From: Phycisphaerae bacterium
Lineage (GTDB): Bacteria > Planctomycetota > Phycisphaerae > SM23-33
DNA length: 64,000 nucleotides
NCBI GenBank assembly: GCA_009783465.1
Contig: WRDM01000008.1
Coordinates: 2,943-66,942, forward strand
Direction: 5' to 3'
Part shown: positions 5,951-28,430 of the stretch, piece by piece
How the letters are laid out: the number at the start of each line of letters is the position of its first letter
Position numbering within the stretch: the first letter of the stretch is position 1
Position numbers and translations under genes: made by a program
The notes under the pieces: generated by a model
What the model saw: only the letters and a program-made list of their open reading frames with translations
Database searches by the model: none
Told to the model about the DNA's origin: nothing

Positions 5951-5985
5951 AACCCTCGGCCTGGCAAACAGACCGAGGGTTTTTC
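5951..5985 (+). terminator. intrinsic terminator after the PEP-CTERM gene
   Basis: Stem CCCTCGGCC/GACCGAGGG followed by TTTTT. Confidence 0.6.
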
Positions 5986-6080
5986 GCGGGACAAACGTAC
6001 GTATAGCCCTTTTTCGCATACAACGGTCATGCAAAAAATCGAGGAATGTGCATGCGATCGTCCTGAGGTTTTTCGTGCGT

Positions 6081-7508: not shown

Positions 7509-7523
7509 TTTCGTTGGTTTTTG

Positions 7524-8521: not shown

Positions 8522-9949
8522 TTACACGTTCAATTCGCTTTGTTGTCCCAGTTTTCCGGCGTATTTTTCCAGGATCGGCGCGATTTCGCCGGTGAGGAAT
8601 TCGTCTACCTGCTCGGGTGATCGGCCGATGTAGGCGCGGGGTTCCAGCACGGCGTTGAAATCGACGCGGTCGAATGCGTCGTCGTTTTGCAGGCGGTCCA
8701 GCAGGTCGTTGGGGTGGCCCCAGTTGACCTGTTCGGCCGAGGCGAGGCTGTGCACGCGGATGCGTTCGTGCAGTTTCTGCCGGTCGCCGCCGGCCCGGAC
8801 GGCCGCCATCAGGATGTTTTCCGTGGCCATGTACGGCAGCTCCGCGACGAAGTTCTGCGCGATGATATTCGGGTGCACCACGAGTCCCTGCGCCACGTTG
8901 AGCACGATGCGCAGGCAGGCGTCGGCGGTGAGGAAGGCCTCGGGAATCGCCAGCCGCTTGTTCGCCGAATCGTCGAGTGTGCGTTCGAACCACTGCTCGG
9001 CGGCCGTCTGGAGCGGCTGCGCGCTGATGCCGATCAGCCATCGCGCCAGCCCCGTCGCCCGCTCGCATCGCATGGGGTTGCGTTTGTACGCCATCGCGGA
9101 CGAGCCGACCTGGCTGGAGCCGAACGGTTCCTCGATTTCCCGGCAGTGGGACAGCAGGCGGATGTCATTGCAGAATTTGTGGACGCTGGCGCCGATGCCG
9201 CCCAGGGCGGCCGCGATGGCGGCGTCGATTTTCCGGCTGTAGGTTTGGCCCGTCACGGGGCAGACGCGCGCGAAACCGAATCGCTGCGCCACCGTGCGAT
9301 CGAGCCGCTTGACCTTCTCGTGGTCGCCGTCGAACAGGGCGAGGAAACTCGCCTGCGTGCCCGTGGTGCCCTTGACGCCGCGGAATTCGAGCGTCTCGAG
9401 GCGGTGTTCGAGTTCGCGCAGGTCCATGAGGAAATCCTGACACCAGAGGGTCGCGCGTTTACCGACGGTCGTGAGCTGGGCGGGCTGAAAGTGCGTGAAG
9501 GCCAGGCAGACCGTGTCGCGCTGCTTCCGCGCGAAGTCCGCCAGCGTGGCCGCGATGTTCGCGAGTTGGCCGATCAGGAGGCGCATGCCTTCGCGCATCA
9601 CGATGAGATCGGTGTTGTCGTTGACGTACTGGCTGGTGGCGCCGAGATGGATGATCGGTCTGGCGGCGGGGGCGGCGTCGCCGAACGTGTGAATATGCGC
9701 CATCACGTCGTGGCGGAGCCTGCGTTCGTGATGGCTGGCCGCGGCGAAGTTGATGTTGTCGAGATTCGCCTCCATCTGCGCGATCTGTTCGTCGGTGATG
9801 TCCAGGCCCAGTTCCTTCTGGCACCGGGCCAACTCCAGCCACAGCCGCCGCCACGTGGAGAATTTTTTCTGGTCGCCGAAGAGCGTCCGCATCTCCTTGC
9901 CGGCGTAGCGAGTTTCGAGCGGGCTGGTGTACGTGTTGCGATCTGGCAT
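8522..9949 (-). CDS. purB: adenylosuccinate lyase
   Basis: 475-aa ORF. 'SPLETRYAGKEMRTLF' and 'SSAMAYKRNPMRCE' (fumarate-lyase signature) are typical of PurB. Confidence 0.9.
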   Translation of the reverse strand: MPDRNTYTSPLETRYAGKEMRTLFGDQKKFSTWRRLWLELARCQKELGLDITDEQIAQMEANLDNINFAAASHHERRLRHDVMAHIHTFGDAAPAARPIIHLGATSQYVNDNTDLIVMREGMRLLIGQLANIAATLADFARKQRDTVCLAFTHFQPAQLTTVGKRATLWCQDFLMDLRELEHRLETLEFRGVKGTTGTQASFLALFDGDHEKVKRLDRTVAQRFGFARVCPVTGQTYSRKIDAAIAAALGGIGASVHKFCNDIRLLSHCREIEEPFGSSQVGSSAMAYKRNPMRCERATGLARWLIGISAQPLQTAAEQWFERTLDDSANKRLAIPEAFLTADACLRIVLNVAQGLVVHPNIIAQNFVAELPYMATENILMAAVRAGGDRQKLHERIRVHSLASAEQVNWGHPNDLLDRLQNDDAFDRVDFNAVLEPRAYIGRSPEQVDEFLTGEIAPILEKYAGKLGQQSELNV

Positions 9950-10230
9950 GGTGTTGTCCTGATTGTCCTGGGTTTCGGTTGACGTTTGCGCGCACGAACG
10001 ATCGCGCCGCCGCCGTTGCGGTTTGCGTAAGTATTCCCTGATTCGGCGGCTACGTCAACCCTCACCAAAACTCTGCGCGCGCGGATTCGTCCGCGGCTTG
10101 TGGCGTGAAAAATTTTTCAAAGATTTTTACCGCCTGTAATCGCCGCGAGTTATGTGTTCGAACAGGCCGATGCCGGCCATGCCTGTGCGCAGTCTCCCCA
10201 CCGCGAAACCCCAGGGTGAGGAGACGACAC

Positions 10231-11874
10231 ATGACCTTCGAGATTGAAAGTTTCCAGGACGACACACTTGACGCGGAGTACATCGACCACCTGATCGACC
10301 GTGTGCTGCCCGAACAGATTCAGCAGACCGGGCGGCTGTGGGAGTACTTCCGCAACCCGATGGTGCCGCTTTCGGGGGCCGTTTCGATGGTGGCCAACGC
10401 GGCCACCAGGCCGTACATGCAGGCCCAGGAGCAGGGCTTGCCCGCCCGCATCACGGGCATCGCCGGCGCCAGCCGCGTGGGCGGCGACCGGAACCGCAAA
10501 GAAGTTGTCGTCGAGAACGACATCGCCTGGCGCGTCCACACGATGGTCGATTTTCTCTTCGGCCAGGAACCCACGATCCGCTCGACGGCCAGCGATCCCG
10601 AATTGGCCGGCGCGATCGAAGCCGTCATCGAGGCCATGCTCCAGGCCAACGGCGGCATGGGATTTTTGCAGGAAATGGCCCTGATGGGCAGCGTGTACGG
10701 CCACGTGGACGTGGCCGTCCGCGTGCCGGATGGATTGGTCCTACCCACCCCGGCCCAGGGATCGTGGGCGCCACGCACTTCTCCACGCCAAACGCGCCGA
10801 GTCAATCCCACCGCCGCCGACGAACCTTCCACCGTCGCGGCGGACGGGCCGGGCACTTCTACTACCTCCGACGCCGCGGGCGTCGATCGAGCGGATGCGG
10901 CAGGATCGGCCGGAGATCGGTCTAGCACGTTCGCACGGGCCGTCGAACTGGCCCGATTGATTACGCTGGAGGCCGTCGAGGCTCCGCGAATCCTGCCCAT
11001 CCTCGATGAGGACGACTACCGCACCATTCGCTACTGGGTGCAGGCCTATCACAAACGCCCGGCGCGGATGAACGTCCGCCGCCGGGGCCTGCTGGGACTG
11101 CGACGCGAAGCCAGTCCCGCCGAGGTCGAAGTCGTCGAAATCATCTCGCCGCATTGGTGGCAGCGGTACGAGGACCGCGTGCTGCTGGCCCAGGGCCCCA
11201 ATCGACTTGGCGTGCTGCCGGTGGTGCATGTGCAGAATCTTTCGGTGCCCAACAGCTACGAGGGGCTTTCGGACGTCGAGCCGCTGATTCCGCTCCAGGA
11301 CGAGTTGAACACGCGGTTGTCGGACCGTGCCAACCGCGTGACGTTCCAGTCGTTCAAGATGTACCTGGGCAAAGGTATCGAGGATTTCCTGGAGCGGCCT
11401 GTCGGGCCGGGACAGATGTGGGCGACGCACAACTTGTCCGCCAGCGTCGAGGAGTTCGGCGACGATCACGGCAGTCCCAGCGAGGATGCGCACATCGCAC
11501 AGGTTCGTTCGGCGATGGATAAGGTTTCGGGTGTGACGCCGGTTGCGGCGGGGCTGATCAACGGCAACGTGGGAAATCTCACGAGCGGCACGGCGTTGAA
11601 GATCGTGCTTGGCGGGCTGCTGACGCGGACGAACCGCAAGCGGCTGACGTACGGCGCGGGGTTGGCGGGCATGGTGGAGTTGGCGTTGCGGTATCTCGAT
11701 TACGCCGGCGTGCTGCCGACGCGCAAGGAGGACCGCAACGTGGAGATTCACTGGCCCAATCCGCTGCCCAACGACGAAAGCGAAGCCCTCCGCAACGCAC
11801 AGATCAAGGCCCAGCTCGGCCTGCCGCCCGACCGCGTCCTGGCCGAATTGGGCTATACGCGGGATAACCGGTAA
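10231..11874 (+). CDS. phage portal protein (SPP1 gp6-like)
   Basis: SD GAGGAG upstream of the ATG at 10231. 'GLSDVEPLIPLQDELNTRLSDRANRV' is a portal-family core. Low-complexity insert at about 10725-10960. Confidence 0.8.
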   Translation: MTFEIESFQDDTLDAEYIDHLIDRVLPEQIQQTGRLWEYFRNPMVPLSGAVSMVANAATRPYMQAQEQGLPARITGIAGASRVGGDRNRKEVVVENDIAWRVHTMVDFLFGQEPTIRSTASDPELAGAIEAVIEAMLQANGGMGFLQEMALMGSVYGHVDVAVRVPDGLVLPTPAQGSWAPRTSPRQTRRVNPTAADEPSTVAADGPGTSTTSDAAGVDRADAAGSAGDRSSTFARAVELARLITLEAVEAPRILPILDEDDYRTIRYWVQAYHKRPARMNVRRRGLLGLRREASPAEVEVVEIISPHWWQRYEDRVLLAQGPNRLGVLPVVHVQNLSVPNSYEGLSDVEPLIPLQDELNTRLSDRANRVTFQSFKMYLGKGIEDFLERPVGPGQMWATHNLSASVEEFGDDHGSPSEDAHIAQVRSAMDKVSGVTPVAAGLINGNVGNLTSGTALKIVLGGLLTRTNRKRLTYGAGLAGMVELALRYLDYAGVLPTRKEDRNVEIHWPNPLPNDESEALRNAQIKAQLGLPPDRVLAELGYTRDNR

Positions 11875-11972
11875 GAGGCTGTAGGCTGAAGGCTGTAGGC
11901 GCAGCACAGGCTTATGCGAGTTTAGACCCAACGAGACATAAGCCTCTCCCTACAGCCTACAGCCCACAGCCT
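11875..11972. repeat. HS-C hairpin element (CTGTAGG heptad arms)
   Basis: GAGGCTGTAGGCTGAAGGCTGTAGGC...GGCTTATG-loop-CATAAGCC...CCTACAGCCTACAGCCCACAGCC. Starts 1 nt after the portal stop codon. Confidence 0.85.
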
Positions 11973-12167
11973 GAAACGGCTCACGTCGCGAAGAACCACA
12001 CGAAGACGACACGCTATGGATGCACCCATCTATGAGGCATTCGGGATTCGGCAACGGCGGCGAGCGCCGCGCGAGGGGGATCGGCACGAACCTCCTGCCG
12101 ACCCGAATGCCTGAACGGAACACAGGCCATGGGCCCGGCGCCCATGACACAACGAAAGGAACTCATC

Positions 12168-12713
12168 ATGGCAGAACCCGTGGAAACTCAGCCGTCCTCT
12201 GACGCGTCCGACAAACTCGTCCCGGTGGGCGAGTCGATCAAGTATCGGCGTCGCGCGCAGCAGGCCGAGGGGCGGCTGACCCAGTTGGAGCAGCAGCTCA
12301 CGCAATTGCAGGGGCAATTGCAGACCCGGTCCGATGAGTTGGCGACGGCCGAGGCGCAGCGCGACGAAGCCCGCCAGCACATGACGCAGATGAACAACCA
12401 GTTCTCCGTCGACCGCCTGCTGATCCAGGCCGGCGTCGTGGATATGGAGGCCGCGAGACTGCTGCTGCAAAATCGCGTGGACCTCGGCGAGGAACTGGAG
12501 TCCACCGACATCGAACAGGCGGTGCAGCAACTGTTGGTGGACAAGCCGTTCCTCCGCGTCGGCAGCGCGTTTCCCCCCAAGAGCGCCAGCGCCAGCCGGG
12601 GCGGCGCGTCGCTGACGGCCCGGATCGCCAACGCCGCCGACCGCGCCGTCGAAAGCGGCGATCGACGCGACGTGGCCGAGTACCTCCGCCTGCGACGTCA
12701 GGCGAATCGTTAG
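12168..12713 (+). CDS. phage scaffolding protein (GP20-like coiled coil)
   Basis: SD AAAGGA upstream of the ATG at 12168. Coiled-coil 'LTQLEQQLTQLQGQLQ'. Sits between portal and capsid genes. C-terminal 'VQQLLVDKPFL'. Confidence 0.65.
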   Translation: MAEPVETQPSSDASDKLVPVGESIKYRRRAQQAEGRLTQLEQQLTQLQGQLQTRSDELATAEAQRDEARQHMTQMNNQFSVDRLLIQAGVVDMEAARLLLQNRVDLGEELESTDIEQAVQQLLVDKPFLRVGSAFPPKSASASRGGASLTARIANAADRAVESGDRRDVAEYLRLRRQANR

Positions 12714-12776
12714 CCCGTCCCCGCGGCCGGCACAGTGCCGACCGCACAAACCCACTGAACATCAAGGAGAAACATT

Positions 12777-13934
12777 ATGCCGTTTACTGGCAAGGCAACC
12801 TATTCCGCCGGCAGCACGCTGCCGGAAATCGCCGATGACGTGTCGGACATCGTCAGCATCGTCAGTCCGTACGAAACCCCGCTGCTGGATCACCTGGGCG
12901 ACCCGGCCCGCGCGGCGTCGAGCACGTATCACGAGTGGCTTGAGGACAGCCTGATTCCCAACATGGACGTGATCAACGACACGGTCATGACGGACCCGGC
13001 CAACAAGACCACGATCACGATGACCAACGGTTCGCGGTTCCGCGTCGGCGACCAGATTCGTCCGCACGGCAGTCTCGAGATTCTGTACGTGACCAACGTG
13101 ACGAACAATGTGATCACCGTCACGCGCGGCTACGGCGCAACGCCCAAGACCGCCATCGCCAACGGGCAGACACTGCACATCATCGGCAACGCCGCCCTGG
13201 AAGGCGACGACGCGCCGCTGACCCGATTCACCAGTCGCGTGCGAAAAGGCAACTGGACGCAGATTTTTGTCTCCACCGTCCGCGTCAGCGGCAGCGACCT
13301 GGCCGTCCGCAAACTGGCCGTCAGCGACGAATTGGATTACCAGAAGCAGGAACGTCTGCGCGAGATGCTCCGCGACCTGGAGAGCACCGTGCTTTGTGGC
13401 CGTTCGCCGCTGATGTCGCCCGAGGGCAGTTCCACCGTCCGCCGAACGATGATGGGCATCCTGCCGTCGATCACCACCAACGTGTTCAAGCCCAGCGTCG
13501 GCGGCTTCCCCAACGACACGGCCCTGACCGAGGCCCAACTGAATCTCGCGATGCGGCGGATCTGGGAAGGTTCCAGCGCCCGCGTGGACACGATCGTCGT
13601 TGGCGGCTTCCAGAAGCGGCGGATCAACGGCTTCATCGCGTCGGGGGCGAGGAATATCAACGGCCGCGAGACGACCTACCGTGATCTGGTGAGCGTGTAC
13701 GAGAGCGATTTCGGCGTGTGCCGGATCATTCTCAGCCGCTCGCTGCCGGCTGACAGCGTGCTGCTGCTGGACTCCAGCCGCGTGAGCGTGATGCCGCTGA
13801 ACGGACGACACTTCCACTACAAACCGCTGGCCACCACTGGCGATTACGAAGCCGGCGAAGTCATCGGCGAGTACACGGTCGAACTGCGTAACGAAATCGC
13901 CCACGGCATCATCACGGGCCTGGATGCGAGCTAA
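12777..13934 (+). CDS. phage major capsid protein (DUF5309/SU10-like)
   Basis: SD AAGGAG. 'VSIVSPYETPLLDHLG...YHEWLEDSL' and 'NWTQIF...VSGS' match the DUF5309 capsid pattern as I recall it. Confidence 0.7.
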   Translation: MPFTGKATYSAGSTLPEIADDVSDIVSIVSPYETPLLDHLGDPARAASSTYHEWLEDSLIPNMDVINDTVMTDPANKTTITMTNGSRFRVGDQIRPHGSLEILYVTNVTNNVITVTRGYGATPKTAIANGQTLHIIGNAALEGDDAPLTRFTSRVRKGNWTQIFVSTVRVSGSDLAVRKLAVSDELDYQKQERLREMLRDLESTVLCGRSPLMSPEGSSTVRRTMMGILPSITTNVFKPSVGGFPNDTALTEAQLNLAMRRIWEGSSARVDTIVVGGFQKRRINGFIASGARNINGRETTYRDLVSVYESDFGVCRIILSRSLPADSVLLLDSSRVSVMPLNGRHFHYKPLATTGDYEAGEVIGEYTVELRNEIAHGIITGLDAS

Positions 13935-13937
13935 CGG

Positions 13938-14094
13938 CAGCCAATAGCCAGTAGCCAATAGCCAATAGGTACGGAACGATATTGGCGAAAGGCAATGAAT
14001 GTGGGAGTTGGCATAAATCTCAAACAGATCACGATCGTGTGATTTTCGACAGGTTTCACCATACCTATTGGCTACTGGCTGCTGGCTACTGGCT
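13938..14094. repeat. HS-A hairpin element, copy 3
   Basis: Arms 13938-13969 and 14061-14094. Loop blocks are the same as in copy 1. Confidence 0.85.
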
Positions 14095-14111
14095 TTTTCA
14101 GGAGAATTCCC

Positions 14112-14762
14112 ATGACCCCACAATGTACCGACCGTGATTTGCTGGCCTTGGAAACGATTCTGTTTCTCGGCGCCGGCGGGACGCAGCAGTTGACTGGCGG
14201 AGCGAACGGGCAGTTGAGCGGCACGACGTTCACCGCCGCCGGCGCCGATTTTCCGGAGGCCGGCATTCAGCCCGGCATGGTGCTGACCACGTACGACCCC
14301 GCCCGCGGGCCGGCGGAAGGGCGGGCCTGCGAAATCGTCGCCGTGCGGGCGGCGACGCAACTGGACGTCTCCGTCCTCCGCGCCGCCGCGGACGCCCCGT
14401 CCGTCGCGCCGTATCCAGGGGGAACCCACTTTCTCATCCGCACCTATCAGCCGCAAATCCAGGCCGTCCATGACGCACTGATGGAGCGGCTGATGCGGGC
14501 GCGTGCGGCCGACCGGGCCAATGTTGGTTCGTTTCTGCCTTCGCCGCAACTGCGGCAGGCCCTGGCGTGCGGGACGCTGGCGGCCGTGTTTGTCAGCCGG
14601 GCGCAGGATGGCACCGCCGCCGACGCCAACTGGCTCAAGGCCGAGCACTACCGCCGCGAGTTCGAGCGGCTCTCGTCCTCGCTGCAACTGACGCCCGAAT
14701 CCTCCGACGGCCTGGGCGGTGGCGTAGTTGCGATGGGCAACGTGACATTGAGGAGGGTGTGA
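14112..14762 (+). CDS. phage structural protein, head-tail connector candidate
   Basis: SD CAGGAGAA. Position immediately after the capsid gene. No recognisable motif. Confidence 0.5.
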   Translation: MTPQCTDRDLLALETILFLGAGGTQQLTGGANGQLSGTTFTAAGADFPEAGIQPGMVLTTYDPARGPAEGRACEIVAVRAATQLDVSVLRAAADAPSVAPYPGGTHFLIRTYQPQIQAVHDALMERLMRARAADRANVGSFLPSPQLRQALACGTLAAVFVSRAQDGTAADANWLKAEHYRREFERLSSSLQLTPESSDGLGGGVVAMGNVTLRRV

Positions 14763-14764
14763 TC

Positions 14765-15883
14765 ATGACCGACAACCCTCTTCCGAACGGATTCAAACGC
14801 CTGGAGCACATGCTGTTCCTTCGCACGCCAGCCCTGTTTGTGACGGACTGGCTGCTGGCGGAGACGGACGGCGTCTGGGTGGATTATCAGCCGCGAAACG
14901 ACATGCCCAGCGTCACCTACGGAAACTATTTCGGCGTGGCGTTTGGCTCGTCCTCCACGGTGTCGATGGGTGCCGCGTCCTATTCCGTCGGGAGAAACTG
15001 GCCCGTCACGACGCAGAACGGGCATATCTATTGGGGCGGGCGATACCGCAGCATCACGGGCATCGGCGACGTGGACAATCAGAGGCACACCCATTCGGTG
15101 AACTGGCTCAACGACCGGACGACGCGATGGGATGGGTCGATCCGCGATACGCTGCCCTCCACGTCGGGCAGTTTTTACACCGAGCCGCTCTGCATCGGCG
15201 GATCGAGCCAGATGGGCGCGCCTAACAGTTACTTCATGTTCGCCGGCGAGATCTACCGGCTGAAGGTCAGCCGCGACGACCAGGTCGTCCGCGACTACGT
15301 TCCCTCCCTCGACGCCTCCGGCGTGCTGGTGTGGTGCTGCCTGCTGACAGGCCACGTAGCCCGGCGACTGGAACACACGACATCGACTTGGCCGGAAGCG
15401 GGGCCCGTCGTGCCCGACGATCCCGTCGAGCCTCCGCCACCGTCACCGATTGCGCCGCACTCCACGGCCACAAAGATTCTGAATCATATCGTCGCGACGC
15501 TGCGGGACACGGGTGCGTTTGCCGAGGTGTCGCTGGCCGCCACCGACGCGGCGCGGATGACCTTACCACGGGCCGACGTGACGTTCGACGGCCTGGAACG
15601 GCTGGCCTTGGACGACGCGCCCGTTGCGGCCTGGCGACTGGCGGCCGTCGTGCGAATCCGCGTCCGCAACGAGCACAACGACGACGCGCTGCGGCGGGCG
15701 CTGGACCTGGCCGACAAGGCCGTTACGACCCTGCGGAACAGCCGGTTCCGTGGCGGACTTTGCCAGGACATCCCTCGCGGCCTGGCGACCGTGGTAACGG
15801 AAACCAAGCCGGCGTCGCCGCATCGGCCGGACGCGGAAGTCCGGCTGTTGGTCCACTGTCATTATCTGGAGGCATCGACATGA
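14765..15883 (+). CDS. phage tail/fibre-like fusion protein
   Basis: The N-terminal domain resembles the fibre-associated 'LEYIESTGTQYIDTG ... VRDFVP' jelly-roll ('FKRLEHMLF...IYRLKVSRDDQVVRDYVPS'). A Pro-rich linker follows, then a C-terminal tail-completion-like domain. Confidence 0.55.
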   Translation: MTDNPLPNGFKRLEHMLFLRTPALFVTDWLLAETDGVWVDYQPRNDMPSVTYGNYFGVAFGSSSTVSMGAASYSVGRNWPVTTQNGHIYWGGRYRSITGIGDVDNQRHTHSVNWLNDRTTRWDGSIRDTLPSTSGSFYTEPLCIGGSSQMGAPNSYFMFAGEIYRLKVSRDDQVVRDYVPSLDASGVLVWCCLLTGHVARRLEHTTSTWPEAGPVVPDDPVEPPPPSPIAPHSTATKILNHIVATLRDTGAFAEVSLAATDAARMTLPRADVTFDGLERLALDDAPVAAWRLAAVVRIRVRNEHNDDALRRALDLADKAVTTLRNSRFRGGLCQDIPRGLATVVTETKPASPHRPDAEVRLLVHCHYLEAST

Positions 15884-16284
15884 TGCGATTTGCGACGATC
15901 GTTTCCGCCCGCTTCGGCGAGGTGGAGTTGCCGCTGCCGATGTCGGCGCGGATTGGCCGGCGAAGCCAGGTGCTGCCGGCCGCCGGAGATGCCGACCGGT
16001 TTGTCCGCAGCGTGCAACTGGCCCCGGCGATGCTGACGGGCGAAGTGACGCTTCGCGGTATCGCCGCCGCGGAGGAGCTGGCGCTCGGGCAGTCGGGCGA
16101 ACTCTCGCTCACGCTGGGCGCGACGCAGGCGGGTCAGCCGCCACGAGTGGTCCGCCTGAGCGGGGCCGTCCTGCACGACATCGAACTGACGTACACGCAA
16201 CAGGGCATGGCGCAGGCGACACTGAAATTCGCCGCCCAGGCCGACGACGACTGCGAACCCTTTGTCGCCAACGACGACGAATAG
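15880..16284 (+). CDS. phage structural protein (small)
   Basis: ATGA start/stop overlap with the upstream gene indicates translational coupling. 134 aa. Confidence 0.5.
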   Translation: MMRFATIVSARFGEVELPLPMSARIGRRSQVLPAAGDADRFVRSVQLAPAMLTGEVTLRGIAAAEELALGQSGELSLTLGATQAGQPPRVVRLSGAVLHDIELTYTQQGMAQATLKFAAQADDDCEPFVANDDE

Positions 16285-16286
16285 CA

Positions 16287-16390
16287 GACTGTAGGCTGTA
16301 GGCTGAAGGCTGTAGGCTGTAGGCGCGGGCTTATGAAACATTAGGCCTAATCCTTCATAAGCCTGCCCCCACAGCCCACAGCCCACAGCC
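16287..16390. repeat. HS-C hairpin element
   Basis: 5 CTGTAGG-type units, core GGCGCGGGCTTATG...CATAAGCCTGCC, then CACAGCC x3. Confidence 0.85.
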
Positions 16391-16409
16391 TTACAACCAC
16401 GAGGAACGT

Positions 16410-16775
16410 ATGACGACGATTGATACCGACAACCTGTTTTCCTCCGGGCCTTGCCGTGTCAGGCCGACGTCGTGGCACCGCCAACTGGAACGCCGCGCCT
16501 TTGCCGGCCTGCACGGCGAACTGGTGCTGGACCTCGGCGCCCGAAGCCGCACGATCGTGCAGCAGGGCCGGCTACAGGCCGCCACCGCTGCCGGCCTGCA
16601 CGCGATCATCGAGAGCATCGAAGCCTACGCCGACGGCGCCTTCCACACACTGGTCGACAACCACGGCCATCCGTATGAACGCGTGCTGCTGGAATCATTC
16701 GAGCCCACAACGCCCGTCGCCCACGGCAACGCATTCTGGTGCGAGTACACCCTCACCTGGCGGCAGATGCCATAA
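16410..16775 (+). CDS. phage structural protein (small)
   Basis: SD GAGGAA upstream of the ATG at 16410. 121 aa. Bounded by hairpin repeats on both sides. Confidence 0.5.
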   Translation: MTTIDTDNLFSSGPCRVRPTSWHRQLERRAFAGLHGELVLDLGARSRTIVQQGRLQAATAAGLHAIIESIEAYADGAFHTLVDNHGHPYERVLLESFEPTTPVAHGNAFWCEYTLTWRQMP

Positions 16776-16780
16776 CTCAG

Positions 16781-16921
16781 GCGTCTGACGTGGCGAGGGC
16801 GTTTCGCCCTCGCGTCTCGCGGGCATCTTGCCCGCACCGGATAACGAAGTCGATTCGACGTTTTCCACTGACTAGGCCAATGGAGCACACAACGCGGGCG
16901 AGACGCCCGCGTCACGTGACG
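16781..16921. repeat. GC-rich palindromic element (GC-pal, CACGTGACGCGGGCG subtype), intergenic
   Basis: Three small hairpins: GGCGAGGGCG-TTT-CGCCCTCGC, GCGGGCA-TCT-TGCCCGC and GCGGGCG-AGA-CGCCCGC. Terminus CGTCACGTGAC. Confidence 0.75.
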
Positions 16922-16938
16922 GCCACAAGGAGTCACAG

Positions 16939-18660
16939 ATGACAACAACCCTTTCCGAAGACGCCGACCGCGCGATGCCCGCCGTGACGCCGGCGGTGTT
17001 TGTGGACGGCCTGCTGCGCGAGGATCTGGTGTGCGTGCGGTGGCAGTGGCTTGGCGGGCCAGAGTTCGGGCGGGCCGTCGTGCAGGCCCGTGGCGGCGGC
17101 GACGGGCGGCTGCCGCGCGTCGAGGAGATCGACGTTCTGCCGCCCATCGGGGCCGACGTGTGCATCGCCGGCGAGCCGGGCGGGATGGCCGACACGGAGT
17201 TCATAGGCCGGGTCGCTGCACACGAACTCGTCGCCGGACCCGAGGGCGAACAACTTTCCGCCGTCGTCGAACACCAACTCAACGATGTATTGGCCGGCAC
17301 GATCACGTCGTCGTTTCACGTGGGTGTCGGCCAGGGGCTGGTGGAACTGCCGGAGGCGGCGATTCGTTTTGGCCCGCCCGACGGCCTGTGTTCGACGCAC
17401 ACGGTCCTGCACAACGGGCGAATGACGCCCGCGTTCTCTGCCGCCGCCGATGCCACCGTCTGGACCGTCGCCGACGCGCTGGCGTATCTGCTCGCGACGG
17501 CCGTGCCCTCCACCGTCAACGCGCCGACGCATGCGCAGCTTCAACTGCTGACGAACTTTCTGCCGCTGGACGACCTGAGCATCACCGGCAAGAGCGTGGC
17601 GGCGGCGTTGCAGGCGGTGGCGGAGTTGGCCGGCCTGTCGCTACGGGCCGCCCGAGAGAATGTGGGGCTGGTGTTCTACCGCGCTGGATTCGACGGGCGG
17701 GATGCAAATGTCGCCCTTCAGCCGGCAATGGAACCGTTCTCCGCCGAGGCGACGAATCTGTGGCGCGGGCGGATCGCTTTTCGCCGCCGCCCCAGCCGCC
17801 GCGGCGTGTTGATGCTCGGCGAACGCAGACGCTACGAACTCTCCACCGGCATGCTGCCCGGCTGGAACCCGGCAAGACACACCACGCGATGGCGCGACTG
17901 CGTCCGCAGCCTGTCGCCCAACTGGGCAGCCTACGGCGACGTGTATCGCAAATGGGTGCTCAACGAACACGCGTGGTACGGCGGTTCGCCGTGGAATTTG
18001 CCGACGTGGACCGGCGCGCAGGTCAACGCGAACCATTTTCTGCTTTGCCAGCCGCGACAATTTCTGCCGTGTCTTTCCGCCAACCAGGCCAACAAAAGCA
18101 TGGGCATCGTGGTGGAAGTCAGTTGGCCCAACAGCCCGTGGCGGCGTTGGCGCGGGCCGTTGTGGGTCAGCCGCGACGAGTGCTCGGTGTACCTGGGAGG
18201 CGACGCGTTGCCGGGAGAATTTTTCCAGGCCGCCGCTGCCGGCACGGCAGGCGTTCGCGTGACGGCGTGCGTCGACGCCGACGCGAGGCTGACGGCTTCG
18301 CTGCCCGGCGACGGCGGCGCGTGGATCGTCGTGCCGGCGCCGAAAGGCCAGGGACTGTGGCGGCAGATTCACAACAGCAGCGTTTTCCTTGGCGCCTCCG
18401 GCATGGGCCAACCGGGCGTCTGCGACGACAGCGAGGTCCTGTCCCGCCTGGCCACGCGACGCCAGGAACGCCCGCCCGATGCGGTCGATGCTGATTTCGA
18501 ACTGGCGTGGGTGGATCTGGGCGTCGGCGTCGGCGACGTCGTGGACCGCGTGGCCGGCCGCGAGATCGACCTGACCGCGTGGGCCGACGCCACGCCCAGC
18601 GTGAAGGCCGTTACGCACGATTTTCTCAAACAGACCACGCGCCTGGAGGTGCACGGATGA
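16939..18660 (+). CDS. phage tail/baseplate-like large protein
   Basis: SD AAGGAG. 573 aa. Largest ORF of the module, in the tail-gene position. Confidence 0.55.
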   Translation: MTTTLSEDADRAMPAVTPAVFVDGLLREDLVCVRWQWLGGPEFGRAVVQARGGGDGRLPRVEEIDVLPPIGADVCIAGEPGGMADTEFIGRVAAHELVAGPEGEQLSAVVEHQLNDVLAGTITSSFHVGVGQGLVELPEAAIRFGPPDGLCSTHTVLHNGRMTPAFSAAADATVWTVADALAYLLATAVPSTVNAPTHAQLQLLTNFLPLDDLSITGKSVAAALQAVAELAGLSLRAARENVGLVFYRAGFDGRDANVALQPAMEPFSAEATNLWRGRIAFRRRPSRRGVLMLGERRRYELSTGMLPGWNPARHTTRWRDCVRSLSPNWAAYGDVYRKWVLNEHAWYGGSPWNLPTWTGAQVNANHFLLCQPRQFLPCLSANQANKSMGIVVEVSWPNSPWRRWRGPLWVSRDECSVYLGGDALPGEFFQAAAAGTAGVRVTACVDADARLTASLPGDGGAWIVVPAPKGQGLWRQIHNSSVFLGASGMGQPGVCDDSEVLSRLATRRQERPPDAVDADFELAWVDLGVGVGDVVDRVAGREIDLTAWADATPSVKAVTHDFLKQTTRLEVHG

Positions 18661-19220
18661 CCGCGCCGAAATTCCATGATTCGCTGTATCGGCTTGCCCA
18701 GATCGGCACGAGCCTGGGCGTGCAACTGGTTCGACTGACCGCATGCCACGGCGACAATCAGTACGCCGCCCTGCCGGTGGAGTTCGATTCCGCCGGCCTG
18801 ACGCAGGTGGCGGAGAACGCGCCGCTGACCGTATTGAACCTGGCCGAGCCTGCCGACGCGGCGGGCACGCTGCCGGCCGACACGGAGGCCGTCGCCATCG
18901 ACGTCGAGGGCAAGTGGGTGATTTTTGTCCGGCAGGCGCCGTCGTCGAATCCCTCGTCGACGCGGCTGGCCCGCGTCAGCGGCGTGCAGTCCGGCGTGGG
19001 GCGGTATTACATCCGCTGGCAGGAGTGCCTCGCGAACGGGCAGTTCCAGGACACCAGCGATCCAGACCCCGCCGTCGCGACGAACCTGGCCGAGCTGTCG
19101 TTCGGCTCGGTGGCGGCGGTGGATCTCAACACCATCGTGCCGATTCTGACCGTCGTCGACGTCACCGGCGTCGCACGGTACGTCTTCGACCATCCGGCGT
19201 ACGCGAAGTATCTGGATTAA
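18657..19220 (+). CDS. phage structural protein
   Basis: ATGA overlap with the upstream gene. 187 aa. Confidence 0.5.
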   Translation: MTAPKFHDSLYRLAQIGTSLGVQLVRLTACHGDNQYAALPVEFDSAGLTQVAENAPLTVLNLAEPADAAGTLPADTEAVAIDVEGKWVIFVRQAPSSNPSSTRLARVSGVQSGVGRYYIRWQECLANGQFQDTSDPDPAVATNLAELSFGSVAAVDLNTIVPILTVVDVTGVARYVFDHPAYAKYLD

Positions 19221-19225
19221 TTGCA

Positions 19226-19453
19226 AAAGCCACTAGCCACCAGCCACCAGGGCTTGCGTGACGCGTAGGTGAAGGAAAACCATTTGCCAGAGGGAAACGT
19301 TTCGTTGACTCGTTAACTGGTTAACTCGTTAATTCGGCGCCAAGTCAACCAGTTAACGAGTTAACCAGTTAACGAAAATGTTCCCTCGAATCTGCGACAT
19401 GATTTCACCGCCGAGCAGTCGAAAAACCTATGTGCTACGTAGCTGGTGGCTTT
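19226..19453. repeat. HS-B hairpin (GCCACTA/GCCACCA arms) containing a nested HS-E (GTTAAC) hairpin at 19290-19387
   Basis: Outer arms 19226-19252 and 19441-19453 (right arm short). The inner element is flanked by GAGGGAAAC / GTTCCCTC. Confidence 0.7.
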
Positions 19454-19470
19454 CTGAAGGGGACTTAACC

Positions 19471-20583
19471 ATGACGACAATCTATACGCCGCAGTGGGCC
19501 AATGCCAACTCGGCGGGTCTGGTGGATTCGAGCCGGTATATCCGTCGTTGTGATCTGGACGAGCTGGCCGCGGCGATCAATCGGCGGCGGCTGCTGGTGA
19601 TTCAGAATCCGTACGAGTACGGCCCGCTGCTGGATGCCCGTCCGTACGTCAGCCAGTATGCGATCGACGACAGCTCCGAGATGTCCGCGCAGGATCACTA
19701 CGCGATGGCCATGCGGCATGCGGTGATTAACAGAATTCTCTACGCGCAGCCAGGCCGCGACACCCTGCATCAGCCGGCATCGCCGAAGTCGATCACGTGG
19801 CTGTGGCCTCTGGCGGACGCCGACGAAAACAAGGCCATCACGACCTGGCTGGCGTCGCCGTCGTCGACCGCGGTAGGCCTGTTCAACCGGCTCAACGGTT
19901 CGGCCACGTGGACTCAGCCCACGCTGCACGCCAACGGCGTGGATTACGCCAAGGCCGTCCACGTCAACGAGCTTCGTCAGGCCCTCGAATGGCTGCGGCG
20001 AGGACGATGGGAACTTCCGATCTATTGGAATCTGGGGATGCTCTCGGAGGTTCCCGACACGGGGTGGTTTGGCGACAGCATCGCCAACACCGGTTCGGGC
20101 GAGTTGCGAAGTCTCGGCCTGTTGCGGGCGGTTCTTCTGGCGTCGGAAATTGGCGGCGGGATGGCGCCAAACGTGTACGGGCTTCACGGCGTGCGGGTGC
20201 TGTCGGCGTCGATTTCCATCGCGGTGAACACCGCGTGCGTCGTGGAGCTTCGCCAGGTGTTGCGTCCAATTTCGCTGGTGCGGACCGCGGGCGACTTGCC
20301 GACGTGGAATCACTATCGCGGCACGAGCAAGCTGGCATGGGCGCAGCCGGGTGGCATGGGGGCGGGCGACAGCGTGGCGATCGGCGGCGGCGCGACATCG
20401 GCGTCCCCCGGCTCGCCAGCCGTCTTCAGCGGCGGCGATCTGCTGCCGGTGTTGCAGGCAATGTTCGATCAGGAGGCGGGCCAGTTCTTCCTGCTCCGCC
20501 GCGTCGACGTCGCCAACACGATGGTCGACATCACCGGCACGACGTTGACGGTGGATTTCGAACTCACCTCGCCGCCGGCGTGA
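19471..20583 (+). CDS. phage tail-fibre-like protein
   Basis: ATG at 19471. Two 'xxNELRxAxxxLR'-type motifs ('DLDELAAAINRRR', 'HVNELRQALEWLRR'), which I have seen in phage fibre/structural proteins. Confidence 0.5.
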   Translation: MTTIYTPQWANANSAGLVDSSRYIRRCDLDELAAAINRRRLLVIQNPYEYGPLLDARPYVSQYAIDDSSEMSAQDHYAMAMRHAVINRILYAQPGRDTLHQPASPKSITWLWPLADADENKAITTWLASPSSTAVGLFNRLNGSATWTQPTLHANGVDYAKAVHVNELRQALEWLRRGRWELPIYWNLGMLSEVPDTGWFGDSIANTGSGELRSLGLLRAVLLASEIGGGMAPNVYGLHGVRVLSASISIAVNTACVVELRQVLRPISLVRTAGDLPTWNHYRGTSKLAWAQPGGMGAGDSVAIGGGATSASPGSPAVFSGGDLLPVLQAMFDQEAGQFFLLRRVDVANTMVDITGTTLTVDFELTSPPA

Positions 20584-20593
20584 AGATGCAGAT

Positions 20594-20805
20594 GCCACAA
20601 GCCACCAGCCACAAGCCACCAGGGCTTGTGGGGCGCGACGGTAAATTTTTCCATCGCGGTGGCGAGAGAGGTCCCGATGCTTCGCGGATACGGCGGTCAA
20701 GGCGGATAACTTACGTTTCGAGTCAGCGAAGCATCGGGACCTCTCTCTCTCGGACAAACGGAACGATTTTCCATTCATGCACCGCAAACCCTTGTCGCTT
20801 GTGGC
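20594..20805. repeat. HS-B hairpin with nested inner hairpin (20664-20748)
   Basis: Arms GCCACAAGCCACCAGCCACAAGCCACCAGGG / CCCTTGTCGCTTGTGGC. Inner hairpin GAGAGAGGTCCCGATGCTTCGC...GCGAAGCATCGGGACCTCTCTC. Confidence 0.8.
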
Positions 20806-20844
20806 TTTGTACCTGCGTGACGAACCACCCGAGAGGAGGGCAGC

Positions 20845-21159
20845 ATGATCAGCGTGATCACGGATTTGACGAGCATGGGGGCGGCGGGGGTGATGGGGGC
20901 GATGTGGCTGTGGGAGCGGCGTGCATCGGCCCAGCGGGAGCGGGAGTTGACCGAGTCGCACGGGCGGATCCTGCGGGACGAGCAGCGGTTGGACAAACTC
21001 ACGCACGTCGTGGAGCAGGCGACGGCGGCCATCACCCGGTTTCAGCAGACGCAGCAGGAGATGAGCGAGTTGATCAAGCACGTTCTTAAGGAGATTCATC
21101 ATGGCGGCACAACGGAAACTCGAAATCAGAAACCCGAAACTCGAAACAAACCCCAATGA
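20845..21159 (+). CDS. small N-terminal-TM coiled-coil protein (i-spanin/holin-like)
   Basis: SD GAGAGGAGGG. TM 'MGAAGVMGAMWLW' followed by a coiled coil. The last ~15 codons are encoded by a repeat arm. Confidence 0.45.
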   Translation: MISVITDLTSMGAAGVMGAMWLWERRASAQRERELTESHGRILRDEQRLDKLTHVVEQATAAITRFQQTQQEMSELIKHVLKEIHHGGTTETRNQKPETRNKPQ

Positions 21160-21342
21160 ACGGCGGAAGTTCGAAATCCAAAGCATGAAATCCGAAACAA
21201 ATTTCAAACAACAAATTCGAAACTCGAAACGGCGCCGCCAAACATCATGCCTGCGCTCCAAGGCGTCATGCGTTACCGTTTGGAATTTGCTGTTTGGGTC
21301 ATTGGGGTTTGTTTCGAATTTCGAATTTCGAATTTCGAATTT
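21114..21342. repeat. HS-F hairpin (GAAACNC / CGAATTT heptad arms)
   Basis: Left arm GGAAACTCGAAATCAGAAACCCGAAACTCGAAACAAACCCCAATGA. Right arm TCATTGGGGTTTGTTTCGAATTTCGAATTTCGAATTTCGAATTT. Confidence 0.75.
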
Positions 21343-21370
21343 ATCACGCCTGGCGATCGTGGCGTGTCTT

Positions 21371-21829
21371 ATGACGTTGCTGGGCGGCTGTGCGGCGCCG
21401 ACGGCCACGCTGGATTTGATTGCCGTCGCCCGCGCGGGATTGGCCGACGCGCGGGATGCGCAGCGGCAGTCGCACGAGACCTTGATACGGCAGTTCTCTC
21501 AGCAGCAGGCGGCGCTCGACGCGGCCTTCGACGCCGACGTCCGGCTGGCGGAGGCCGGGGCGATCCGCGACGCGCAGGGCAACCCCGTCGCGCTGGACGG
21601 GCGATGGGTGATCGCCGCCCGCAAAGGCTATGTGGCCGCCCGCGACGCCGTGGCACAACAGGCCGTTGCCGCGCAGGCCGCCCACGCCACGCGGCTGGAC
21701 AACCTCGCCGCCGCCGACGACGCGCTCCACATGGCCTGCACGCTCATCATCGAACAACAGGGCCTGAACATCCGCATGCGGCAGTACCTCCAGAAAGCCA
21801 CAAGCCACAAGCCACTAGCCACAAGGTAA
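21371..21829 (+). CDS. helical lipoprotein
   Basis: Lipobox 'LLGGC'. Start ambiguous (GTG 21359 or ATG 21371). The C-terminal 'KATSHKPLATR' is encoded by a repeat arm. Confidence 0.45.
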   Translation: MTLLGGCAAPTATLDLIAVARAGLADARDAQRQSHETLIRQFSQQQAALDAAFDADVRLAEAGAIRDAQGNPVALDGRWVIAARKGYVAARDAVAQQAVAAQAAHATRLDNLAAADDALHMACTLIIEQQGLNIRMRQYLQKATSHKPLATR

Positions 21830-21947
21830 GGATAGTCTCTGGCTAAAAGACAATGATCGCGGAAATGGCTGTACCTGTTCGATGAACCAGGATCGGCTGA
21901 TGGGTAACAGGTTTTGCCATACCTGGTGGCTAGTGGCTAGTGGCTTT
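21794..21947. repeat. HS-B hairpin
   Basis: Arms AAAGCCACAAGCCACAAGCCACTAGCCACAAGGTAAGG / CCATACCTGGTGGCTAGTGGCTAGTGGCTTT. Confidence 0.85.
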
Positions 21948-21983
21948 TTTCGTTTATCGCCGAATCACAATAAAAGGAAAACC

Positions 21984-22238
21984 GTGGACAATCAACTTAA
22001 CGACATCGTTTCTCGGGCCGTGGGACAACGCTACGACGAATGGGCGACGCAGCATCCGTCGCTGGCGAGCGTGATCGACCACGTGGAACTTTCGCAACAG
22101 ACGGCCGAGAGGCTCCGCGAAACCCCCGCGTACTGGCAGGCCGTCAACGAGTACCACACCAGCCGCAACGAACTGAACTTCCTCACCCGCCTGCTGGACC
22201 TGGCCGGCCCGGTTCTCCGGGATATCCTGGCGAAGTGA
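21984..22238 (+). CDS. hypothetical small protein
   Basis: GTG at 21984 preceded by AAAAGGAAA. 84 aa, helical. Confidence 0.35.
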   Translation: MDNQLNDIVSRAVGQRYDEWATQHPSLASVIDHVELSQQTAERLRETPAYWQAVNEYHTSRNELNFLTRLLDLAGPVLRDILAK

Positions 22239-22265: not shown

Positions 22266-23504
22266 CTACGGCGTTTCGAGGAGATTCTGCCAGCAGCACT
22301 TGGCCGTGACGTTGTGGCGGCGGCATATGTCCAGCAGTGGGGCGGTGATGGCGGATTGGGCGGTTGGCGGCAGTCGCCAGCTTCCGCCGCGGAAGGTCAG
22401 GCGTTCGGGCGGCTGGGATTCGTGGGCGATGGATTCGTAGAGGGTTCGCATGTGTCGCATCGTGGGCGAGAGCGGGCGGTTTCGCGGCTGGACGATTTTG
22501 GCCGTGGAATATACGACGTGACGGACGCCGACCTCTTTGGCGAACGCGACCAGCCGTTCCAGGTCGTCGAGCGTTTGCGGCCATTCTCGTGACGCGGGCG
22601 TCTCGCCCGCGTTGTGTGTTCCATGGGCTTGGCCGTTGAAAGACGAAAAATCTTTTTCATCGGCTGACGGCGAGGGCTGGAAGCCCTCGCGACACGCGGG
22701 CGAGACGCCCGCGTCACGTTTTTCGGCACGCGGGAACAGCGGGTCGATTCGCAGGACCACGTCCACGCCGGCCTGGCGGAGACGGCGGATGCCTGCAACG
22801 CGGTCTTCAACGCTCGGCGCGCCGGGATCATAGAGTTTCCTGGCCTCGTCACGCCAGAACGCCAGGCTGACCTCGAGGAGAAAACCAGGCCGTGGCGAGT
22901 TGTGTTTGGACGCGTGGAGTTTTCGGAACAGTTCGTCGCAGCCCAACTCCACGGCCAGGCGTGGATTTTTCGTCAGGACGACGACGCTCGTGAATCGGTT
23001 GCGATGGTCGAGGATCCGCCGCAGCGTCAGTCGCGTGTGGCCGGCGTCGGCTTCGAGCGGTTGAAACGCGTCGGTGCTGTTGGACAGATGAATCGGCGCG
23101 GGCGGGACGTTGAAGCGTTCCAGATCGGCGAGGTCCTTATCGAGCGACCGTGCGAAATCCCGCTTCACGCCCGCTTCGGACGGCTCGTATGCGGCGGCGT
23201 AACAGTACTCGCACGCGTGCGAACAGCCGGTGTAGACGTTGACGCAGTAGCGATGCCCGCTGGGAAAATACCGTTGGCTGGCGAACGGACAATACCACTT
23301 GACGACGCGAGGCCGCGTGGGGCAGAGCGTCGGCTTTTTCGATCCGTGCGGCAGAAAATACAACGCCATGGCCGCCTGCTCTCGCGGCGTTTTTTTTTGC
23401 CAGGCCGGCGCGTATTTTTCGTCGATCCGCCGAACCAGCGACAGGCCCTCATCGATGTGGGTTGAGTTGATTGAGAACAGGCTCAATCCGCCTCCTCCGG
23501 CCAC
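22266..23504 (-). CDS. radical SAM protein (COG1533 'DNA repair photolyase'/SplB-like) carrying an in-frame repeat insertion
   Basis: 'NVYTGCSHACEYCYA' is the CxxxCxxC cluster. The central ~44 aa are encoded by the palindromic element 22588..22718. Confidence 0.8.
   Translation of the reverse strand: MAGGGGLSLFSINSTHIDEGLSLVRRIDEKYAPAWQKKTPREQAAMALYFLPHGSKKPTLCPTRPRVVKWYCPFASQRYFPSGHRYCVNVYTGCSHACEYCYAAAYEPSEAGVKRDFARSLDKDLADLERFNVPPAPIHLSNSTDAFQPLEADAGHTRLTLRRILDHRNRFTSVVVLTKNPRLAVELGCDELFRKLHASKHNSPRPGFLLEVSLAFWRDEARKLYDPGAPSVEDRVAGIRRLRQAGVDVVLRIDPLFPRAEKRDAGVSPACREGFQPSPSADEKDFSSFNGQAHGTHNAGETPASREWPQTLDDLERLVAFAKEVGVRHVVYSTAKIVQPRNRPLSPTMRHMRTLYESIAHESQPPERLTFRGGSWRLPPTAQSAITAPLLDICRRHNVTAKCCWQNLLETP
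22588..22718. repeat. GC-pal element inserted in frame in the radical SAM gene
   Basis: Termini CGTGACGCGGGCGTCTCGCCCGCG / CGCGGGCGAGACGCCCGCGTCACG. Internal GGCGAGGGCTGGAAGCCCTCGC hairpin. Confidence 0.8.
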
Positions 23505-28428: not shown

Positions 28429-28430
28429 TC

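Follow-up and report, generated by a model that had tools for sequence, protein, structure and literature searches.

A terminase-less, tailed-phage-derived particle locus in the Phycisphaerae, possibly a gene transfer agent

Few independently domesticated tailed-phage particles, known as gene transfer agents (GTAs) or viriforms, have been described, and we know of none in Planctomycetota. Here, we analyse a 64,000-nucleotide stretch of DNA from a Phycisphaerae bacterium (assembly GCA_009783465.1, contig WRDM01000008.1, positions 2,943 to 66,942; hereafter, the window), in which 13 tightly packed open reading frames (ORFs), all on the forward strand between 10231 and 22238, encode a portal, a scaffold, a major capsid protein (MCP), neck-like proteins, a predicted tail hub, and putative envelope proteins, and no terminase. 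Full-text literature searches returned no description of this element, which looks like an undescribed host-owned virus-like particle locus and possibly a GTA. Very probably, it is a non-autonomous phage-derived particle locus that the host has retained under selection. For the whole statement, that of a domesticated, vertically inherited viriform of tailed-phage origin that is present class-wide and works as proposed below, we estimate a probability of roughly 0.6.

The GTAs of the RcGTA type (Rhodogtaviriformidae) resemble this module in having a head-tail cluster of ~12-15 kb that is inherited vertically across a very large clade, evolves under purifying selection, and lacks integration and replication genes. 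RcGTA has a hub-type tail tip, and the DUF2793-type fibre domain found in relatives of the module is a further likeness. The RcGTA cluster encodes the small and large terminase subunits (TerS and TerL), a prohead protease, a tail tube, and a tape measure. The module has none of these genes, its MCP is of another family (SU10/DUF5309), and it comes with a separate scaffold. The phages with SU10/DUF5309 capsids (E. coli phage SU10, Sporosarcina phage Lietuvens, and the uncultured phage of locus L085) share with it a PF17236 MCP, an SPP1-type portal, and a separate scaffold, and are its presumed ancestry. They differ in carrying TerL upstream of the portal. The tail-tip protein of the module has a predicted hub fold. 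L085 is the nearest uncultured phage (MCP 42% identical; order TerL, portal, scaffold, MCP), and the MCPs of cultured phages are at most 32% identical to that of the module. In Brachyspira, the GTA VSH-1/BhGTA (Brachygtaviriformidae) is likewise a chromosomal tailed-particle cluster without terL that diversified along with its host; one highly conserved, single terL is found at another site of the genome (PMC9662315). No homology was detected between its genes and those of the module. BhGTA has an endolysin, is confined to one genus, and makes demonstrated particles with 7.5-kb DNA and transfer, whereas the module is class-wide and known from genes alone.

Other systems share single traits with the locus. 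Capsid-forming phage-inducible chromosomal islands (cf-PICIs) are host-resident islands that have their own portal, capsid, and connectors within an incomplete phage gene set. Such satellites carry an integrase, att sites, helper-responsive regulators, and packaging specificity genes, and their distribution is patchy; none of these features was seen at the module. The central hub/spike fold predicted for one module protein, g8, is shared with Afp, PVC, the Anabaena contractile injection system (CIS), and Mu-type baseplates. Contractile injection systems and tailocins have a sheath and a tube but no capsid, whereas the module has a capsid, a portal, and a scaffold. Encapsulins are also domesticated HK97-fold shell proteins kept by the host, but without portal, scaffold, or tail parts, all three of which are present here.

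Gene content of the module

The genes of the module are the following (window coordinates, strand, and description; fam numbers denote families from the ORF clustering).

10231-11874, +, g1: portal of the SPP1 type, 547 aa (PF05133, phrog_64, phrog_104)
12168-12713, +, g2: coiled-coil scaffolding protein, 181 aa (alternative starts 12129 and 12144)
12777-13934, +, g3: MCP, 385 aa, SU10/DUF5309 family, HK97 fold (PF17236, phrog_1328)
14112-14762, +, g4: conserved virion-associated protein, 216 aa (N-terminal beta domain and three-helix bundle)
14765-15883, +, g5: 372 aa, with a C-terminal neck-type domain of ~140 aa, same family as g7
15880-16284, +, g6: small neck or connector-like protein, 134 aa (ATGA-coupled to g5; fam14, conserved in position)
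16410-16775, +, g7: small neck or tail-proximal protein, 121 aa (fam8; paralogue of the g5 C-terminal domain)
16939-18660, +, g8: predicted baseplate hub or central-spike protein, 573 aa (gp27/Mu gp44/VgrG fold)
18657-19220, +, g9: conserved tail-tip partner of the hub, 187 aa (ATGA-coupled to g8; fam12)
19471-20583, +, g10: Trp-rich distal tail protein, 370 aa (alternative start 19378; fam13)
20845-21159, +, g11: 104 aa, N-terminal transmembrane helix and coiled coil (read from the translation)
21371-21829, +, g12: lipoprotein with LLGGC lipobox, at least 152 aa (start maybe upstream, at 21302 or 21359; fam17)
21984-22238, +, g13: small conserved protein, 84 aa, end of the operon (GTG start 21984; longer ORF from 21882; fam24)

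An earlier note on this DNA, made from its letters alone, had described a phage structural module of 13 co-oriented ORFs with Shine-Dalgarno sites and two ATGA couplings. Re-reading the window gave the same picture: GGAG-type Shine-Dalgarno sites precede most starts, and stop and start codons overlap as ATGA at 15880-15883 (g5/g6) and 18657-18660 (g8/g9). The host-like composition that had been judged by eye is reflected in the codon bias, with a GC content at third codon positions of 0.73-0.84 across the module genes. Family searches with NCBIfam and PADLOC returned nothing for the module proteins except sub-cutoff coiled-coil matches for the scaffold g2 (NCBIfam), and none of g4 to g13 matched a Pfam, PHROG, NCBIfam, or PADLOC family.

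We compared the module with 83 other chromosomal loci using tblastn and ORF clustering. The assignment of g1 as an SPP1-type portal holds: it scores 52.3 bits against PF05133 (curated cutoff 25.5, E 5.8e-14), matches phrog_64 (4.5e-19), and opens the operon in every locus, tblastn finding a portal in 79 of the 83. The same is true of the DUF5309/SU10-like capsid: g3 matches PF17236 (SU10_MCP) nearly from end to end (residues 14-382, 273 bits for a cutoff of 24.1, E 4.4e-81), as well as phrog_1328, and the family profile matches the solved capsids 9ny2_A (6e-21), 9in6_M, and 7z45_A, the last from SU10. The GP20-like scaffold stands only in part. g2 is a coiled coil placed between portal and MCP (in 75/83 loci) with a match to phrog_2303 (8.4e-5), whereas its PF06810 match falls below threshold (31.4 bits for a cutoff of 35, E 2.3e-7). 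Directly after the MCP comes g4, also in the head-only variants described below; it is present in 76/83 loci and counts 314 representatives of 50% clusters. Its AlphaFold2 model (predicted local distance difference test, pLDDT, 92.6) had no significant PDB match in the fold search, and a PDB sequence-profile search gave nothing usable. In BFVD, it weakly matches (~1e-3) domains at the N termini of tail-fibre, tailspike, and baseplate proteins, and g4 is probably an adaptor or appendage anchor.

The connector-, tail-, and fibre-like labels given earlier to the genes after g4 fared unevenly: neck-like proteins are indeed present, but calling g8 to g10 fibre-like was a guess, and g8 is predicted to be a hub. 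The N-terminal ~230 aa of g5 (14765-15454) form an extension seen in the window only, for which neither a Pfam match nor a homologue in the other loci was found; relatives have a ~140-aa protein at this position. g7 was found in 59 of the 83 loci. The AlphaFold2 model of g8, built on a 41-sequence alignment, has a pLDDT of 90.6 and a predicted template-modelling score of 0.79. Foldseek searches with it against the PDB recovered the baseplates of the Anabaena CIS (7b5h_AJ, 1.6e-11) and of Mu (9ki1_G, 1.9e-9), the MuSo2 43-kDa tail protein (3cdd, 6e-9), 3d37, 1wru, VgrG1, and T4 gp27, and also tail-tip or baseplate entries of the siphophages 80alpha and T5. The hub matches have a Foldseek probability of 1.00, E values of 1.6e-11 to 1e-6, and target-normalised TM-scores of up to 0.62. 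The sequence profile alone gave a marginal match to Afp8, and none of the 97 homologues of g8 is named. From its modelled structure, g8 is thus predicted to be a hub of the gp27/Mu gp44/VgrG fold. This is not the fold of a podovirus nozzle, and the short, podovirus-like tail that had been read from the gene set is unsupported as stated.

In the loci of the purB-linked clade, g9 is always immediately 3' of g8. PDB sequence-profile searches with g7, g9, g10, and fam7 (a family of the relatives, see below) gave no usable match. The pair of a membrane protein and a lipoprotein is confirmed by the transmembrane helix of g11 and the lipobox of g12 in their translations, and the small g13, whose homologue in L109 also has 84 aa, completes a trio. 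g11 occurs in 37 loci, always after the last structural gene, head-only loci included; in L076, the transmembrane/coiled-coil gene is followed by a lipoprotein of another family (fam31).

Distribution and descent with the host

We found more than 4638 homologues of the MCP, of which the best 120 are 67-79% identical and 382-389 aa long, many of them encoded on contigs of 0.1-2.4 Mb. A protein with exactly the sequence of the window MCP is annotated in a Phycisphaerae metagenome-assembled genome (MAG). Relatives of the module are present in at least 314 species-level genomes (one genome per species), a count of carriers and not a share of all Phycisphaerae genomes. The best 80 of these 314 are all Planctomycetota MAGs, with no assembly occurring twice, and the family and order names among them (Phycisphaerales, Phycisphaeraceae, Sedimentisphaerales, Tepidisphaeraceae, and Anaerohalosphaeraceae) all belong to the Phycisphaerae.

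Synteny is conserved class-wide, and the absence from close relatives that the earlier note named as a refutation was not seen. The common order in the 83 loci is portal, scaffold, MCP, g4, the ~140-aa g5-like protein, g6, and g7, then fam7 (~250 aa), fam3 (150-600 aa), fam5 (200-780 aa), and g8, followed by g9 and g10 in the purB-linked clade and by g11, g12, and g13, to which some clades add fam19, a probable lipoprotein. In 24/83 loci, purB lies divergently upstream, and the Sedimentisphaerales-named loci that we inspected have their own, different set of upstream neighbours. The host neighbours are clade-specific, and the position of the module is therefore stable within clades.

The variable part is the region between g7 and g8, which spans 2-5 kb in relatives and encodes there a DUF2793 fibre protein, beta-helix (pectate-lyase-like) tailspikes, and a PHROG 'minor tail protein', next to fam5 proteins that match no family and look LamG-like by eye. 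Receptor-binding modules typically have such a mixture. None of fam7, fam3, and fam5 is present in the window, where g7 (end 16775) is followed by g8 (start 16939), and most relatives have at least three tail, fibre, or tailspike genes more than its lineage. The same reduced architecture is found in the related loci L109, L110, and L113, where the genes are intact and under selection; it is thus an evolved state and not damage. Some Phycisphaeraceae- or Tepidisphaeraceae-type loci (e.g., L056, L065, L041, L043, L047, and L066) are head-only: portal, scaffold, MCP, and g4 are followed by g11 to g13 and fam19 and then by host genes such as thiC, with no neck, hub, or fibre gene at the locus. The constant core of the module therefore consists of the capsid set, g4, and the envelope proteins.

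The proposal of the earlier note, that the module has long been inherited vertically under selection, is well supported and withstood each of the refuting conditions that the note had set. In a set made of the window and 14 loci in which purB adjoins the portal, the mean amino acid p-distance was lowest for the MCP (0.237), followed by purB (0.296), the portal (0.392), the scaffold (0.474), and g4 (0.495). No other module gene is as conserved as the MCP, and purB has diverged further than it. Distances correlate with those of purB in Mantel tests (MCP r=0.71, p=0.0005; g4 r=0.56; portal r=0.38). Loci L113 and L109, of a related species from the same kind of sample, have the flanks of the window (aminotransferase, hypothetical gene, and purB), and the synonymous divergence (dS) from this species is 0.36-0.55 for the genes from portal to g7, 0.48 for purB, and 0.53 for the aminotransferase, so that module and host genes are equally diverged. 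The GC content of the MCP follows that of the non-module flanks (r=0.94 over 0.39-0.70).

We estimated the ratio of nonsynonymous to synonymous divergence (dN/dS) against within-sample comparison loci (L110, L114, and L115 from sample ERZ27257304; L109 and L113 from JGI 3300010167). All 13 module genes are uninterrupted and have dN/dS of 0.16-0.54 at dS ~0.3-0.9: 0.19 for g1 (against L113), 0.35-0.50 for g5, 0.22-0.25 for g6, 0.16-0.23 for g7, 0.37 for g9, 0.21 for g11, 0.41 for g12, and 0.26 for g13. The fastest-evolving gene is g10 (dN/dS 0.54), with an amino acid identity of 48% where the other genes of the relative are 69-84% identical, and it is a candidate target-recognition protein. Neither relaxed selection nor frameshifts, the signs of a recent remnant, were seen in relatives: the MCP is uninterrupted in 79/79 loci, and its class-wide identity is 59-79%. 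The results on selection, dS, GC tracking, and intactness are the opposite of what characterises a recent or decaying prophage. The within-sample comparison was possible because the source metagenome of the window contains a second, related species in which purB and the module are arranged alike (MCP 79% and g8 77% identical).

Putative control region and surroundings

The other features at and around the module are listed below.

8522-9949, -: purB (Lyase_1 and ADSL_C), upstream of the module
9950-10230, no strand: divergent purB-portal intergenic region with conserved, putative control layout
9987-9994 (TGCGCGCA), 10074-10083 (TGCGCGCGCG), and 10184-10191 (TGTGCGCA), no strand: GC palindromes, read from the sequence
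10107-10118, no strand: AT-rich palindrome GAAAAATTTTTC, flanked by the GC palindromes
10213-10224, no strand: AGGGTGAGGAGA, extended Shine-Dalgarno at the start codon, in the purB-linked clade
11870-11972, 13939-14099, 16280-16391, and 16789-16919, no strand: hairpin copies, like repetitive extragenic palindromes (REP-like), in module gaps; host-wide repeats
19224-19387, 20594-20749, 21116-21230, and 21796-21965, no strand: further REP-like hairpin copies in module gaps; host-wide repeats
22266-23504, -: radical SAM gene, downstream of the module

The layout of palindromes upstream of the portal is common to ~55 loci whose GC content ranges from 40 to 74%. Palindromes of the TGCGCGCA class have a frequency of 0.87 per 220 nt ahead of the portal and of 0.06 in random windows drawn from these loci (~15-fold enrichment). 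Read as sequence, this operator-like region suggests dedicated host control. No sigma-54 promoter was found upstream of the window portal. In 15 loci of the Phycisphaeraceae type (L039-L080 type), the divergent gene next to the portal encodes, in place of purB, a sigma-54 enhancer-binding protein of GAF-AAA+-HTH architecture (in L073, for instance, at 5971-7587 on the minus strand), and this protein is a candidate for a dedicated regulator of those loci.

Both neighbours named earlier were found in place, purB upstream on the opposite strand and the radical SAM gene downstream. The latter matches phrog_13321 (annotated as function unknown; E 1.6e-13), and we considered it as a member of the module, but it never adjoins the module in the 83 other loci and is probably an unrelated host gene. 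Family scans, partly complemented by identification by eye, give purB, a class-III aminotransferase, and FabA as upstream host genes, whereas the downstream ones include the radical SAM enzyme, a glycoside hydrolase, BatA/VWA/DUF58 genes, an RsmD-like gene, and RNase R. The window ends in a ribosomal-protein operon, and the readable remainder of the 85-kb contig past it holds the ribosomal operon, secY, adk, map, and rpoA. The only tRNA of the window, a tRNA-Cys at 55904-55977, lies 33 kb from the module. Searches of most large non-module ORFs of the window with Pfam and/or PHROG gave no terminase, integrase, repressor, replication, or other phage function. The statement that every large ORF is accounted for went too far: four (7524-8456, 43704-44678, 54633-55928, and 56784-57860) match no family, and a fifth (30558-31862) has a sub-threshold match to the NlpB/DapX lipoprotein only. 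None of the five looks phage-like. Two BatA/VWA-type sets flank the module, one at 822-2921 (BatA-VWA) and one at 26116-28428 (BatA-VWA) and 28560-29465 (DUF58-VWA); they are typical Planctomycetota housekeeping-like clusters, unrelated to it.

The hairpin repeats in the gaps of the module do belong to families shared with intergenic DNA elsewhere in the window, as had been noted. The gaps are linked to other sites by direct families D1-D9, D12-D14, and D17-D19 and by inverted pairs I2, I3, I8, I9, I10, I12, I17, I22, and I23, with partner intergenic sites at, e.g., 2-160, 4003-4236, 28415-28560, 29494-29814, 42586-42708, and 47688-47894. Three intergenic regions of the window (19288-19387, 28415-28538, and 38648-38755) hold hairpin-forming arrays of the GTTAACTNGTTAAC type with a period of 8 nt. 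Further host intergenic families are of the AGCCACAAGCCAC.../...GTGGCTTGTGGCT, GGCTGTAGGCTGTAGG, and CGGGCGTCTCGCCCG types. An inverted repeat with 144-nt arms that are 94% complementary and 180 nt apart (46745-46888 / 47069-47212) lies just upstream of a HIT-family gene.

The terminase and the function of the particle

We built a hidden Markov model (HMM) of TerL from 117 database terminases and the TerL of locus L084. It matches the viral loci L084-L092, L096, and L108 but nothing in the window (all six-frame ORFs), in the 83 chromosomal loci, or in L109-L115. This agrees with the family scans and with the earlier view of the window as free of terminase, integrase, repressor, and replication genes. 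Within the 10-kb flanks of ~85 chromosomal loci, no integrase, lysogeny, or replication gene was found either, and no contiguous prophage beside the module. A gene of 635-650 aa downstream of head-only loci was considered as a terminase, but by eye its sequence resembles ThiC. In all loci examined, the module lacks a terminase in cis, and by analogy with BhGTA, the simplest assumption would be a terL elsewhere on the chromosome.

Among the marks of GTAs and viriforms (PMC9662315), chromosomal caudovirus-derived genes that co-evolved with the host are found here, as seen in synteny, purB co-divergence, dS, and GC, and a self-propagation module is absent from the window and from the 10-kb flanks of ~85 loci; a terminase that packages host DNA was neither found in cis nor recovered in trans among the best 120 of 946 TerL-seeded matches. 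With the portal, the scaffold, and the SU10-type HK97-fold MCP, the module has all the genes needed for a procapsid of the P22/T7/SU10 kind, which requires no protease. Four small to mid-sized proteins, g4 to g7, follow and would form a neck, and after them come the g8 hub and its conserved partners g9 and g10. Expression may be under dedicated host control through the operator-like region upstream of the portal. A terminase from elsewhere on the chromosome could then fill the capsid with DNA, as proposed for VSH-1/BhGTA, which would make the element a GTA. The products of g11 to g13 (transmembrane/coiled-coil protein, lipoprotein, and small protein) may act at the envelope in release, possibly in a spanin-like manner, and the released particle would bind cell surfaces, as suggested by the hub fold of g8, the fibre and tailspike genes of relatives, and the fast evolution of g10. 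GTA function, i.e., DNA packaging and transfer, is what we infer from the likeness to described agents. An unlinked terminase would be the most economical mechanism, which we put forward tentatively, and the odds that the cargo is host DNA delivered as in GTAs may fall a little short of even.

Several observations weigh against the reading of the locus as a class-wide particle working in this manner. It is known here from genes alone, with no particles, packaged DNA, or transfer seen, and its breadth is given by a number of carriers. None of the module proteins was recognisable as a tail tube, sheath, or tape measure, and no endolysin or holin family was recognised either. The lineage of the window has no fibre and spike genes, and the head-only variants are odd for a DNA-delivery device unless their tail genes are elsewhere. 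A protein search seeded with the TerL of L085 returned 946 matches, of which the best 120 are ordinary phage terminases from unrelated hosts, none named Planctomycetota and none on a contig equal in length to one of the listed MCP-bearing contigs, which is a weak negative.

The last points bear on a use of the particle that would do without a host terminase: it could serve as a decoy for infecting phages or as their parasite, capturing the terminase and DNA of the invader and ending in abortive interference or satellite-like transduction, or else carry something other than DNA. We find this unlikely on balance. It fits with the lack of TerL in cis in ~85 loci and among the best 120 TerL-seeded matches, with an MCP conserved above purB, and with head-only loci that retain portal, scaffold, MCP, g4, and the envelope proteins. 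It also draws on a phage, IMGVR_UViG_3300033145_000895 (L084/L116, the latter covering 10001-20755), that encodes RecT, a PD-(D/E)XK nuclease, DUF1376, TerL, a P22-type portal, an unrelated MCP of its own (PF13252), and an SU10-type adaptor. Between its recombination and replication genes stands a lone SU10/DUF5309 MCP (L084 7023-8183), 88.5% identical to a chromosomal Phycisphaerae MCP, with no portal, scaffold, or g4 beside it. That a phage took up this gene suggests that the host particle is of consequence when phages infect, and the phage-borne MCP may be a counter-measure against it or a way of exploiting it. This protein alters 8 of the 150 columns that are invariant in 24 chromosomal MCPs, but leave-one-out values for the latter have a mean of 1.7 and a maximum of 8; the changes thus stay within that range, and we rejected an altered constraint. 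Moreover, no PADLOC defence family matches any module protein, the variable fibre and tailspike genes and the fast g10 point to an extracellular, cell-binding particle, a decoy would need to fit many different phage terminases, and in BhGTA the terL that the cluster lacks is simply located at another site (PMC9662315). The more specific version, in which a portal-bearing capsid without its own terminase anywhere in the genome serves class-wide as a decoy, defence, or transduction device or as a non-DNA carrier, and phages acquire the host capsid gene, seems to us rather improbable.

That the locus is a phage satellite of the PICI or cf-PICI kind, which would make its own capsids and take the terminase and the missing tail parts from a helper phage, is very improbable. 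Capsid genes without a terminase do resemble satellite strategies, and tail content varies by lineage, but the window and the 10-kb flanks of the loci have no integrase, att repeats, flanking tRNA, excisionase, replication gene, or TerS, and the fixed chromosomal position, host-like dS, co-divergence of the MCP with purB, and the single occurrence per assembly in the best 80 genomes are at odds with it. We give hardly any credence to an inert, decaying prophage remnant from which terminase, integrase, and lysis genes have been lost: an autonomous phage would need more genes than these, and the lineage of the window has lost at least three tail genes, but purifying selection acts on all 13 intact ORFs, L109, L110, and L113 share the reduced architecture intact, and the MCP is intact and has the GC content of its hosts (0.39-0.70) throughout. 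We rejected a functional or recently decayed prophage (no integrase, att repeats, repressor, replication, or lysis genes found in the window; intact and selected), a tailocin or extracellular CIS (capsid genes present, no sheath or tube family detected), and an encapsulin nanocompartment (portal, scaffold, neck, and hub genes present).

With these alternatives weighed, we retain the reading of the locus as a domesticated, vertically inherited viriform. A capsid gene that is more conserved, class-wide, than an enzyme of purine biosynthesis indicates a strong function at the level of the host. The head-only variants, the loss of fibres in some lineages, and the phage with a host capsid gene provide testable handles on what this function is. 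If the particle is a GTA, it would represent a new route of gene exchange in a widespread and hard-to-cultivate environmental group and a second case, after Brachyspira, of a structural cluster kept apart from its terminase. If these genomes have no terminase anywhere, it would represent a new use of a viral capsid.

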